NCBI RefSeq assembly: GCF_003334385.1 | Contig: NZ_QOWN01000012.1 | Length of the DNA: 64,000 nucleotides | Source: Escherichia coli | Lineage (GTDB): Bacteria > Pseudomonadota > Gammaproteobacteria > Enterobacterales > Enterobacteriaceae | Strand: one strand, 5' to 3' | Shown here: positions 35,193 to 44,884 of the stretch, one piece after another | How the letters are laid out: every line of letters begins with the position of its first letter | Position numbering within the stretch: the first letter of the stretch is position 1 | The notes under the pieces: generated by a model | Databases searched by the model: none | Told to the model about the DNA's origin: nothing | The model's input: only the letters and a program-made list of their open reading frames with translations | Position numbers and translations under genes: made by a program

Positions 35193-36593
35193 TTAATCCA
35201 TCTCTTCCGCTGAGGTAATACCAGGCAGAACGTTTTCCTGTCGGTAGCCACCAGGGAGGATAATATTTAATAAAATCGCAGTTAACCCGCCAGCAGAAAT
35301 AGGGTTTTCAACTAATACATAAATAGAGGCTGGCAATATTTTAAAAATTTCGGGATCGTAGGAGACGCCAAGCCCTAAACCTAAAGAAGTGGCGACAATA
35401 AGTGTTTCACGGCGCTTTAAACCGTTGGTGATGATGATGCGAATCCCTGCGATGGCAATCATGGAAAACATCAACGTCATTGCGCCTCCCAGAACTGCCG
35501 AGGGAATGGTCGTGAAGAAGCCGCCAATCATCGGAAATAAGCCGAGGATAACCAGCATTACCGCGATGGTTCGCCCGACATAACGTGAAGCGACGCCAGT
35601 CATCTGAATAACCCCATTATTTTGCGCAAACGTGGTTAATGGTAATGAACCGACAGCGGAGGCGATAACAGAAACCAGACCATCTGCCAGCACGCCGCCT
35701 TTCAGCCGGGACTGATACTCTTCCCCCTGAATGGGGCGGCGGGAAACCATTGCCGTGGCGGTGATATCGCCGACTGCTTCCAGCACGCTAAGCAGATAAA
35801 TCGTGCCAACCACCAGGAACTGATGGAAGCTAAAACTAAAGCCGTATTTGAACGGATGCGGGATGGTGATTAACGGCAAATTGCGCATACTGCTGAAATC
35901 CACCATGCCCAGGCATAACGATGCGATATAGCCGACACATAGCCCAATGGCGATCCCTCCCATGCGTAGCAACGGACTGCGACAGCAGTTAAAGCCGATC
36001 ACCACAATTAAAACCAATAAACCAACGCCGAGATGTTCGTAATTGCCGAACGTACCGCTGCTTTTGGCTGCAAATCCTCCACCAAAATCGATAATGCCGA
36101 CTTTAATCAGGCTTAAGCCGATCATCAGTACCACAATACCGCTGACGGTAGGCGTAATAACCCGACGTAAATAGGGCAAGATAAATGAAGATCCGACAAC
36201 CAGAAATGCGCCAACGAAGGAGACGCCGAGAAGCGACGACATGATTAACTCTTCGTGAAAACCGTCGCTTTTCATGCTGCTGCCCAGCGCAATCATGACC
36301 GTAACAAATGAAAAATTGACTGACTGAATTGAGAGTAGGCCAGAACCGACGATGCCGTAGCGGTTTACTTGTAACCAGGTACCAATACCAGAGGCGATCA
36401 TCGCCATAGAAACAAGATAGGCAGTTGTTTCAGCGGAAAGCTGTAAGGCCGCACCCACGATTAACGCGGGGGTTACCATCGGAACGAAAATTGCCAACAG
36501 ATGGGTAATGGCACCAACGAGAGCCTGATGAAAGGGAGGGCGATCCTCCAGTTCAAATATAAGGTCAGAACCTGCATGGTTTATATCAGACAT
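35193..36593 (-). CDS. xanQ: Xanthine permease XanQ (NCS2/NAT), 466 aa
   Basis: MSDINHAGSDLIFELEDRPPFHQALVGAITHLLAIFVPMVTPALIVG...; track ORF has a 19-codon upstream extension. Confidence 0.9.
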   Translation of the reverse strand: MSDINHAGSDLIFELEDRPPFHQALVGAITHLLAIFVPMVTPALIVGAALQLSAETTAYLVSMAMIASGIGTWLQVNRYGIVGSGLLSIQSVNFSFVTVMIALGSSMKSDGFHEELIMSSLLGVSFVGAFLVVGSSFILPYLRRVITPTVSGIVVLMIGLSLIKVGIIDFGGGFAAKSSGTFGNYEHLGVGLLVLIVVIGFNCCRSPLLRMGGIAIGLCVGYIASLCLGMVDFSSMRNLPLITIPHPFKYGFSFSFHQFLVVGTIYLLSVLEAVGDITATAMVSRRPIQGEEYQSRLKGGVLADGLVSVIASAVGSLPLTTFAQNNGVIQMTGVASRYVGRTIAVMLVILGLFPMIGGFFTTIPSAVLGGAMTLMFSMIAIAGIRIIITNGLKRRETLIVATSLGLGLGVSYDPEIFKILPASIYVLVENPISAGGLTAILLNIILPGGYRQENVLPGITSAEEMD

Positions 36594-36726
36594 CCCTTCA
36601 CTCCTTTTAAAGTAAATTTGATCATCTGAATTAGTAAAATAAATTCCCACGAATTTGGGGCGCAGGACGCCTTGAGAACGGCTTATCTCATTTTCGCAGT
36701 CACTATTTAGTCATCGTTCAAACAGA

Positions 36727-44700: not shown

Positions 44701-44884
44701 GCGGGCCAGCGGCAGGGCCGACGGGAGTGGCACAGGTTTCACCGAAGACGCTAACAGTTTTACCTTTTACAGGTGAGTAAAACTGTTGCTCGGGAATACC
44801 AAAGATTGAGCGTTGTTGTTGGTATTCATCAAATATGCGCGTCAAAAGTTCCTCAAACGGAATGGGACGCATAATATCCCCCAT
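41786..44884 (-). CDS. ygfK: Large Fe-S / FAD-NAD(P) oxidoreductase YgfK (reported putative selenate reductase component), 1032 aa
   Basis: Cys-rich 4Fe-4S motifs (CLECNYVCSKCVDVCP, CNECGNCAQFCP) and GAGPAG dinucleotide-binding motif; length matches K-12. Confidence 0.88.
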   Translation of the reverse strand: MGDIMRPIPFEELLTRIFDEYQQQRSIFGIPEQQFYSPVKGKTVSVFGETCATPVGPAAGPHTQLAQNIVTSWLTGGRFIELKTVQILDRLELEKPCIDAEDECFNTEWSTEFTLLKAWDEYLKAWFALHLLEAMFQPSDSGKSFIFNMSVGYNLEGIKQPPMQQFIDNMMDASDHPKFAQYRDTLNKLLQDDAFLARHGLQEKRESLQALPARIPTSMVHGVTLSTMHGCPPHEIEAICRYMLEEKGLNTFVKLNPTLLGYARVREILDVCGFGYIGLKEESFDHDLKLTQALEMLERLMALAKEKSLGFGVKLTNTLGTINNKGALPGEEMYMSGRALFPLSINVAAVLSRAFDGKLPISYSGGASQLTIRDIFDTGIRPITMATDLLKPGGYLRLSACMRELEGSDAWGLDHVDVERLNRLAADALTMEYTQKHWKPEERIEVAEDLPLTDCYVAPCVTACAIKQDIPEYIRLLGEHRYADALELIYQRNALPAITGHICDHQCQYNCTRLDYDSALNIRELKKVALEKGWDEYKQRWHKPAGSGSRHPVAVIGAGPAGLAAGYFLARAGHPVTLFEREANAGGVVKNIIPQFRIPAELIQHDIDFVAAHGVKFEYGCSPDLTIEQLKNQGFHYVLIATGTDKNSGVKLAGDNQNVWKSLPFLREYNKGTALKLGKHVVVVGAGNTAMDCARAALRVPGVEKATIVYRRSLQEMPAWREEYEEALHDGVEFRFLNNPERFDADGTLTLRVMSLGEPDEKGRRRPVETNETVTLLVDSLITAIGEQQDTEALNAMGVPLDKNGWPDVDHNGETRLTDVFMIGDVQRGPSSIVAAVGTARRATDAILSRENIRSHQNDKYWNNVNPAEIYQRKGDISITLVNSDDRDAFVAQEAARCLECNYVCSKCVDVCPNRANVSIAVPGFQNRFQTLHLDAYCNECGNCAQFCPWNGKPYKDKITVFSLAQDFDNSSNPGFLVEDCRVRVRLNNQSWVLNIDSKGQFNNVPPELNDMCRIISHVHQHHHYLLGRVEV

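Follow-up and report, generated by a model that had tools for sequence, protein, structure and literature searches.

The window analysed here is a 64-kb stretch of the E. coli chromosome with five gene pairs in which the stop codon of one gene lies on or beside the start codon of the next, and the question raised is whether these junctions indicate translational coupling within operons and a stoichiometric co-expression of the encoded subunits, as the original prediction had it. The reading that we prefer, with a probability of roughly 0.7, is that they are normal intra-operon junctions, with one mRNA per pair and a geometry that permits termination-reinitiation coupling. The window is the reverse complement of approximately 2.997-3.061 Mb of the K-12 chromosome, each K-12 CDS of the region corresponds to an intact ORF in it, and many E. 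coli chromosomes are 100% identical to its positions 36500-45000. Two of the five junctions lie in the ygfK-ssnA-ygfM-xdhD unit, of which ygfK is the leading gene:

41786-44884, minus strand: ygfK CDS, 1032 aa, flavin/Fe-S yanthine reductase (function from Li 2025), an intact ORF equal to K-12 b2878
40455-41783, minus strand: ssnA CDS, 442 aa, an amidohydrolase whose homologues align from residue 1
39625-40404, minus strand: ygfM CDS, 259 aa, FAD-binding subunit
36758-39628, minus strand: xdhD CDS, 956 aa, with a 2Fe-2S module resembling XdhC at the N-terminus, fused to a Mo module resembling XdhA

The modular composition of XdhD was seen in BLASTP alignments, in which residues 1-139 had 33% identity to XdhC and residues 178-949 had 30% identity to XdhA. 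Both xdhB and ygfM are annotated as encoding FAD-binding subunits, and the architecture of the xanthine dehydrogenase family was found, with FAD, 2Fe-2S and Mo-cofactor modules in adjacent genes. XdhD differs from the molybdenum hydroxylase family in that a single fused polypeptide contains both the Fe-S and the Mo module, and XdhD-YgfM acts as a urate reductase, not a hydroxylase, in a cluster that constitutes a reductive urate degradation pathway (Li 2025); the earlier label of "hydroxylase operon" is therefore dated. XdhD co-purifies with a protein of about 30 kDa that was taken by the authors as YgfM, and YgfK and SsnA are separate enzymes that act sequentially and were assayed via a coupled reaction (Li 2025). 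As for xdhA, elsewhere in the window, its product has 752 aa in the K-12 annotation and 765 aa in that of PGAP.

The five junctions were read base by base on the coding strand:

39625-39628, minus strand: ygfM/xdhD junction, ATGA, the ygfM stop TGA over the xdhD start ATG, distance -4
57272-57275, minus strand: xdhB/xdhC junction, ATGA, the xdhB stop over the xdhC start, distance -4
7426-7429, plus strand: pepP/ubiH junction, ATGA, the pepP stop over the ubiH start, distance -4, with a weak Shine-Dalgarno (SD) motif
31929-31934, plus strand: ygfT/ygfS junction, GTGATG, ygfT TGA at 31930-31932 and ygfS ATG at 31932, 1-nt overlap
41781-41788, minus strand: ygfK/ssnA junction, ygfK stop at 41788-41786, then TC, then ssnA ATG at 41783-41781

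It was found that the overlaps predicted for ygfM/xdhD, xdhB/xdhC and pepP/ubiH are true 4-nt overlaps. The ygfT and ygfS genes also overlap, and the 4 nt (GTGA) that had been claimed for them would require the GTG at 31929 as the start codon; the ATG at 31932, which is the start annotated in RefSeq and in K-12, gives a distance of -1 (TGATG), and the genes overlap with either candidate. The overlap proposed for ygfK/ssnA was not present: bases 41783-41786 read ATCA, and the junction TAA-TC-ATG contains a 2-nt spacer, in agreement with the +2 listed for this pair by Huber 2023 (Table S2). The ssnA frame is open upstream as far as a GTG at 41849, and a start there (a 64-nt overlap) was ruled out because homologues start either at the Met that is annotated or 2 residues before it; tblastn alignments of SsnA began at residue 1 in 80/80 loci. 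All five pairs are thus co-directional and within -8 to +10 nt, at -4, -4, -4, -1 and +2, the last being a spacer.

Such spacing is common in this genome. Distances of -8 to +6 are found in 707 of 2,987 unidirectional E. coli pairs (24%), with a mode of -4 (Huber 2023), and the window has 7 junctions in this range among 31 same-strand pairs relative to 7.3 expected from the genome average, which rules out a local enrichment. Under a uniform spacing model, the three exact -4 junctions among 22 pairs spaced -20 to +60 gave a Poisson P of 0.003, a value that is not special to the region because -4 junctions occur genome-wide in E. coli. All five distances are already in the K-12 table of Huber et al. 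2023. Therefore, these are ordinary E. coli operon junctions of a known and catalogued kind, and judging from the bases at the junctions their geometry would allow coupled translation without proving it.

The conservation of spacing was evaluated in 80 other species, with one genome per species. The ygfM to xdhD distance was within -4 to +4 in 43/43 orthologous loci, and ygfT to ygfS was tight in 18/18 (-4 in 17 and -1 in 1). The ygfK to ssnA distance varied (-4, +2 to +4, or 9-30 nt), being within -4 to +4 in 60/80 loci, alternating between -4 and +2 among Enterobacterales and reaching 9-30 nt in Vibrionaceae and Aeromonas; the embedded ssnA SD motif shifts along with it from Gly-Gly codons to Val-Glu codons of the YgfK tail. 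The adjacent ssnA to ygfM spacer was at least 27 nt everywhere and never tight, which indicates that the spacing constraint is junction-specific. More widely, the xanthine/CO/aldehyde dehydrogenase family (COG1319, COG1529 and COG2080) resembles the present loci in having tight subunit-gene junctions in hundreds of genomes, with median distances of -3.4 for FAD-subunit to Mo-subunit gene pairs (n = 403) and -4 for FeS to FAD gene pairs (n = 477) (Huber 2023, Table S4). Both of the ATGA overlaps between such subunit genes in the window join an FAD-subunit gene (ygfM or xdhB) to the start of a 2Fe-2S module (the XdhD N-terminus or XdhC). A BLASTP comparison of YgfM with XdhB at a threshold of 1e-3 gave no direct match, and so a common ancestral origin of these two junctions is not claimed.

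The SD motifs of the downstream genes are located 5-9 nt from their starts, at the 3' ends of the preceding coding sequences, and those of xdhD and ssnA lie within the final codons of the upstream genes:

39635-39642, minus strand: xdhD SD motif GGGGAGGA, within the final ygfM codons (Gly-Glu-Glu), anti-SD duplex -11.2 kcal/mol
41791-41795, minus strand: ssnA SD motif GGAGG, within the final ygfK codons (Val-Glu-Val), -10.6 kcal/mol, conserved

The xdhC duplex is also strong (-9.4 kcal/mol), and those of ubiH (-3.0 kcal/mol) and ygfS (-3.3 kcal/mol) are weak. A strong embedded SD motif was found in 65-100% of orthologous junctions. Given their predicted duplex energies, xdhD and ssnA could also be initiated independently. 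When 100-nt segments around the individual downstream starts were folded, none of the five was more structured than shuffled sequences (z of +1.05 to -1.84), and so there is no indication of a block to de novo initiation; these predicted folds neither support nor refute structure-dependent coupling.

Exact matches to sigma-54 motifs published from ChIP-seq (-24/-12 element GG-N10-GC, with binding taken from the literature) were found in the window upstream of four genes only:

44957-44973, minus strand: sigma-54 motif GTGGTGCGATTGTTGCT of ygfK (Bonocora 2015)
60514-60530, minus strand: sigma-54 motif upstream of xdhA
54609-54593: sigma-54 motif of ygeW
29950-29966, plus strand: sigma-54 motif upstream of ygfT

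The genes ygfK, ssnA, ygfM, xdhD, xdhABC and ygfT belong to a co-varying RNA-seq module, the YgeV iModulon, and ygfK-ssnA-ygfM-xdhD is designated one operon in the literature, where a search for transcript maps or an ssnA-specific promoter yielded operon designations, ChIP or iModulon data only. The operon membership that had been predicted is probable and well supported by tight spacing, sigma-54 sites, the module and the literature.

Taken together with the junction geometry, these observations are the grounds on which we infer co-transcription, coupling and a benefit of coupling. Each of the five pairs would be carried on one mRNA, with sigma-54/YgeV(UacR)-dependent promoters driving the ygfK, xdhA and ygfT units and pepP/ubiH transcribed as part of the housekeeping ygfB-pepP-ubiH-ubiI cluster. 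A ribosome that ends the upstream gene would then sit on or beside the downstream start (ATGA, TGATG or the 2-nt ygfK/ssnA gap), the SD motif for that start would be encoded by the final codons just translated, and reinitiation after termination would tie downstream translation to that of the upstream gene. Translational coupling at the five pairs is a reasonable inference from this combination of features. In experiments, a +2 spacer lowered reinitiation by 5-70% and coupling fell steeply with distance (Huber).

The proposed stoichiometric co-expression of subunits applies to part of the set. It fits ygfM/xdhD, the products of which co-purify, and xdhB/xdhC, which is listed at -4 and scored "yes" as a complex (Huber 2023, Table S2), and for XdhD-YgfM and XdhB/XdhC a supply of FAD subunit and Fe-S/Mo subunit at a ratio of about 1:1 is plausible; subunits of complexes are 4.5-fold enriched among tight pairs. 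It does not fit the sequential enzymes YgfK and SsnA, nor PepP, an aminopeptidase, and UbiH, a ubiquinone monooxygenase, the functions of which are unrelated. Because neither of these pairs forms one complex, stoichiometry is not the general reason for tight spacing, although it may possibly apply to ygfT/ygfS.

A different explanation, which we consider unlikely, is that stop and start codons drifted and that the overlaps arose in this way, as neutral by-products of operon compactness, with co-transcription but with independent, SD-driven initiation instead of coupling. The strong xdhD and ssnA SD motifs, the lack of predicted occluding structure at the starts, the wide interspecies variation of the ygfK/ssnA distance and the merely genome-average frequency of tight junctions in the window are all consistent with it, as is the overlap of pepP and ubiH despite their unrelated functions (this COG pair has a median distance of +1, with q1 -4 and q3 +18; Huber 2023). 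The invariably tight spacing of ygfM to xdhD and of ygfT to ygfS in other species argues against drift. Experiments with native E. coli -4 pairs bear on both sides, in that four of the five tested were coupled and bioB/bioF, also at -4, was not (Huber 2019).

Two further possibilities are very improbable. If the overlaps were annotation artefacts, the real downstream starts would lie deeper in the ORFs, and the two neighboring ygfS start candidates, the weak ubiH and ygfS SD motifs and the differing annotations of genes such as xdhA could be taken in this sense. However, orthologues align from residue 1 with a start codon there (43 loci for XdhD, 80 for SsnA and 18 for YgfS), SD motifs are appropriately placed, and the overlapping ATG is the earliest start codon in every one of these ORFs. 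Internal promoters or terminators could likewise split the clusters and place paired genes on separate transcripts. Consensus scans for sigma-70 promoters and intrinsic terminators, covering the three sigma-54-dependent urate units, gave numbers near the shuffled expectation and no match at any junction; the few weak sigma-70-like matches (9/12) inside coding regions numbered 15, relative to 11.9 +/- 3.4 in shuffled sequence. A stable hairpin occupies the ssnA-ygfM spacer and a terminator-like one follows xdhD, but both lie between pairs and never within one, the former is without a U-tract in E. coli, sigma-54 sites are upstream of first genes only, and junctions of -4 to +2 nt are too short for a promoter or terminator. 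The coordinates of these hairpins are as follows:

40421-40445, minus strand: hairpin CCCTCTTCCC-GCA-GGGAAGAGGG in the 50-nt ssnA-ygfM spacer, dG -20.2 kcal/mol, z = -5.4
36733-36748, minus strand: terminator-like hairpin GGCCGC-TTCG-GCGGCC with a T-rich tail, 10 nt past the xdhD stop

The ssnA-ygfM hairpin separates the tight pairs ygfK/ssnA and ygfM/xdhD. Of 41 related spacers, 36 were predicted to form a hairpin with 7 or more pairs, the sequences being non-homologous between genera, and an Rfam scan of 36593-44884 detected no RNA element. We tentatively suggest, as a possibility that we would not yet favor, that the operon consists of two tight pairs split by an evolutionarily kept hairpin, which might, through protection of the 3' ends of mRNA or through partial termination, determine how much YgfK/SsnA is made relative to YgfM/XdhD. 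Intercistronic stem-loops, or REP elements, determine how stable the individual mRNA segments are in operons such as malEFG. The ssnA-ygfM hairpin and others in the ygeW-ygeX, ygeX-ygeY and ygeY-hyuA spacers resemble these in that a stable hairpin directly follows a cistron and precedes the next SD motif, and differ in that they are not REP elements, most are without a U-tract, and their role is putative. If the suggestion were correct, the hairpins of the ygeW-ygeX-ygeY-hyuA spacers would extend the two-pair layout to a cluster-wide design.

Coupling itself has a classical precedent in the trp operon, where the stop/start overlaps of the two-subunit genes trpE-trpD and trpB-trpA lead to near-equimolar synthesis and coupling was shown experimentally. 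The junctions described here share the overlapping stop and start codons between subunit genes, whereas coupling at them is predicted. The same holds relative to the hyfH-hyfI, astD-astB, ydbH-ynbE and menD-menH pairs (Huber 2019/2023), which are alike in their co-directional ATGA/TGATG overlaps with an SD motif in the upstream 3' end; ygfK/ssnA differs from these in its spacer, and ubiH and ygfS in the weakness of their SD motifs. HyfH and HyfI are subunits of one complex, like the products of ygfM/xdhD and xdhB/xdhC.

The significance of these junctions beyond correct annotation is small, as a stop/start overlap is the commonest type of E. coli operon junction. They have a practical aspect, in that probiotic E. 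coli for use in hyperuricaemia is currently being engineered with the reductive urate-degradation pathway of this cluster. In refactoring, the junctions of ygfM with xdhD and of xdhB with xdhC, including the ribosome-binding sites embedded in them, should be kept or deliberately replaced, and the 2-nt ygfK/ssnA gap and the conserved hairpin between the gene pairs should be allowed for. Two close junctions in the window were absent from the original prediction, namely a 20-nt overlap of sdhE and ygfX and a +1 junction of uacT and yqfG.

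The stretch 36500-45000 matched many E. coli chromosomes at 100% identity, and the region was found in 5,187 of 5,426 complete genomes. The window corresponds to approximately 2.997-3.061 Mb of K-12 MG1655, read as the reverse complement. A few SNPs distinguish the two, as does an indel of 181 bp in the yqeA-yqeB interval, and mapping of the K-12 CDSs gave an intact ORF for every one. The convergent yqeB/yqeA spacer (48331-48370) is shorter by this length than in both MG1655 and strain CFSAN061772, and the insert absent here is possibly a REP-type element. The genes of the ygfK unit are as follows:

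41786-44884, minus strand, ygfK
40455-41783, minus strand, ssnA
39625-40404, minus strand, ygfM
36758-39628, minus strand, xdhD

The original prediction held that start and stop codons overlap at five junctions, and took this to support translational coupling, operon membership and stoichiometric co-expression. The bases of all five junctions were read directly from the sequence, and the observation was partly confirmed: three overlaps were exact, one was of the correct kind and wrong size, and one was wrong. The xdhD start overlaps the ygfM stop by a true 4 nt at 39625-39628 (...GGGGAGGAAGCCGT-ATGA-TC), and ATGA was also read at xdhB/xdhC (57272-57275) and pepP/ubiH (7426-7429). At ygfT/ygfS (GTGATG, 31929-31934) there is an overlap of 1 nt (TGATG), given the ATG at 31932 annotated by both K-12 and RefSeq; the 4-nt form (GTGA) requires that ygfS start at the GTG one codon 5′ of this ATG. 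The four bases assigned to a ygfK/ssnA overlap read ATCA, and the actual sequence, GTG GAG GTG TAA TC ATG, contains a 2-nt spacer. Two further close junctions had been omitted, namely sdhE/ygfX (20121-20140, plus strand), the window's longest same-strand overlap (20 nt), with a GTG start for ygfX, and uacT/yqfG, with a spacing of +1 (28127-28129, minus strand). The 3′ end of yqfG (41 aa) also overlaps that of yqfH (23 aa), on the opposite strand, by 4 nt (28002-28005).

These junctions, and the phenomenon, are already known. The K-12 distances in Table S2 of Huber et al. 2023 (negative for overlaps) are -4 for xdhB/xdhC, ygfM/xdhD and pepP/ubiH, +2 for ygfK/ssnA, +50 for ssnA/ygfM and -1 for ygfT/ygfS. 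Three exact -4 junctions are improbable under a uniform spacing model (P = 0.003) but match the genome-wide pattern, in which -4 is the commonest spacing among unidirectional E. coli pairs, 707 of 2,987 of which (24%) fall within -8 to +6 (Huber et al. 2023). Within this range were 7 of the 31 same-strand pairs in the window, compared to 7.3 expected, and therefore there is no local enrichment of tight junctions.

Conservation was evaluated in 80 loci obtained from an SsnA alignment, each species being represented by a single genome. Most of these loci are gammaproteobacterial and a few betaproteobacterial; orthologous stops and homology-anchored starts were positioned by tblastn. Across 43 loci, the ygfM-to-xdhD distance never left the range -4 to +4 (-4 in 23, -1 in 11, +1 to +4 in 9), and that of ygfT to ygfS was -4 in 17 and -1 in one. 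For ygfK to ssnA, the 80 loci gave -4 in 18, +2 in 35 (5 of these ambiguous, ATGAGTATG), +3 or +4 in 7, 9-30 nt in 18, and 74 and 268 nt in one each, whereas ssnA to ygfM was never tight (27-96 nt across the 41 loci with ygfM directly after ssnA). Therefore, tightness is junction-specific and best preserved between subunit genes. Family-wide distances agree: medians are -3.4 for COG1319-COG1529 pairs (n = 403), -4 for COG2080-COG1319 (n = 477), and +1 for PepP-UbiH (quartiles -4 and +18, n = 237) (Huber et al. 2023).

In Enterobacterales (loci L004-L083; window 41781-41797), the ygfK/ssnA junction is either an ATGA overlap, with a 444-aa SsnA starting MS(I/M)L... and an embedded Shine-Dalgarno (SD) motif GGGAGG in Gly-Gly codons, or the E. 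coli TAA-NN-ATG form, with a 442-aa SsnA and GGAGG in Val-Glu codons. Klebsiella, Raoultella, Enterobacter and Kluyvera-type genomes (L013, L017, L020-L022, L024-L030 and others) have no ygfM-xdhD within 6.5 kb after ssnA and have ygfT-ygfS nearby on the opposite strand, a cluster arrangement unlike that of E. coli.

As for the subunits, a protein of about 30 kDa, taken to be YgfM, co-purifies with XdhD, which reduces urate to 2,8-dioxopurine, whereas the next steps of the pathway fall to two separate enzymes, the reductase YgfK and the ring-opening amidohydrolase SsnA (Li et al. 2025). By BLASTP, residues 1-139 of XdhD form an XdhC-like Fe-S module, which is fused to a Mo module resembling XdhA, and so both xdh-type ATGA overlaps join an FAD-subunit gene to the start of a 2Fe-2S module. 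Judged by alignment, the cluster's electron-transfer modules are paralogous: YgfS (162 aa) shares 46% identity with YgfT over the latter's N-terminal 157 residues, and YgfT 217-632 is 34% identical to the C-terminal half of YgfK.

Exact matches to the sigma-54 ChIP-seq motif of Bonocora 2015 were located as follows:

44973-44957, minus strand, sigma-54 motif of ygfK
60530-60514, minus strand, sigma-54 motif of xdhA
54609-54593, minus strand, sigma-54 motif of ygeW
29950-29966, plus strand, sigma-54 motif of ygfT

The xdhA start near its motif is ATG 60419 (752 aa) in K-12 and ATG 60458 (765 aa) in PGAP, both on the minus strand. A relaxed sigma-54 scan gave no consensus match at any junction or between paired genes, and further matches inside ygfT (30959-30975) and yqeB (47851-47835, antisense). 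Consensus scans of the three sigma-54 urate units (those starting at ygfK, xdhA and ygfT; pepP/ubiH lies outside) found no terminator-like sites at the junctions. The genes ygfK, ssnA, ygfM, xdhD, xdhABC and ygfT co-vary in the YgeV iModulon, an RNA-seq module, and ygfK-ssnA-ygfM-xdhD has been termed an operon in the literature. PurR ChIP sites were assigned to ygfK-ssnA and ygfT-ygfS (Cho 2011), and the PurR-box sequences of that study occur exactly upstream of the ygfK sigma-54 promoter (45183-45198, minus strand), about 280 nt within the ygfT coding region (30290-30305, minus strand) and upstream of gcvT (10171-10186, plus strand).

The SD motifs reside in the final codons of the upstream genes. 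Those of ubiH and ygfS are weak (-3.0 and -3.3 kcal/mol), and the others are:

SD for xdhD, GGGGAGGA, in Gly-Glu-Glu of YgfM, -11.2 kcal/mol
SD for ssnA, GGAGG, in Val-Glu of YgfK, -10.6 kcal/mol
SD for xdhC, GGGGGGA, -9.4 kcal/mol

Of the tight orthologous junctions, 65-100% have a strong embedded SD (at or below -8.4 kcal/mol). Such motifs might instead serve de novo initiation independent of the upstream gene, leaving the overlap uncoupled. They are strong enough for this, bioBF sets an E. coli precedent for overlap without coupling, and RNA folding of the junction regions gave no structure capable of suppressing independent initiation beyond what shuffled sequence gives. In the experiments of Huber et al., 4 of 5 native E. 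coli -4 pairs were coupled, SD removal usually lowered reinitiation, and the loss of reinitiation was 5-70% with a +2 spacer and 80-100% with a +38 spacer; complex subunits are also enriched 4.5-fold among tight pairs. The standard account explains the junctions best: paired genes would be co-transcribed, and the junction geometry would permit termination-reinitiation. Coupling is predicted as likely at ygfM/xdhD, xdhB/xdhC and ygfT/ygfS and as possible at ygfK/ssnA; at pepP/ubiH, coupling, if present, would be without a stoichiometric rationale. The interpretation in the original prediction is partly supported.

The 50-nt ssnA-ygfM spacer contains a perfect 10-bp hairpin at 40444-40422 (within 40421-40445, minus strand; dG -20.2 kcal/mol, z = -5.4), and similar hairpins are present in the ygeW-ygeX, ygeX-ygeY and ygeY-hyuA spacers (53255-53311, 52001-52057 and 50737-50788). 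The stable GC hairpins of these four spacers of about 50 nt lie immediately 3′ of the stop codons. Stems of 7 or more pairs were found in 36 of 41 ssnA-ygfM spacers of related species, with no sequence homology between genera, and in one orthologous locus (L052) the spacer contains a complete intrinsic terminator with a T8 tract. This retention of the stem suggests a maintained intercistronic element that splits the ygfK-ssnA-ygfM-xdhD unit into two tight pairs. Intercistronic elements of this kind are a known type of feature. In the 164-nt xdhD-xanQ spacer, a terminator-like hairpin (GGCCGC-TTCG-GCGGCC then TGTTTCTCTGTTTG; 36733-36748, minus strand) 10 nt past the xdhD stop may terminate the ygfK unit, or attenuate it, ahead of xanQ-guaD-ghxQ.

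Rfam matches elsewhere in the window were:

4778-4961, minus strand, 6S RNA (ssrS)
3979-4129, minus strand, SIB RNA (sibC), opposite the ibsC toxin gene
18472-18549, minus strand, naRNA4, a REP-derived element between trhA and ygfZ
61707-61777, plus strand, tRNA (glyU)

The programmed +1 frameshift site of prfB, AGGGGGTATCTTTGAC, is at 24725-24740 (plus strand), and the annotation gives prfB as a join of two pieces.
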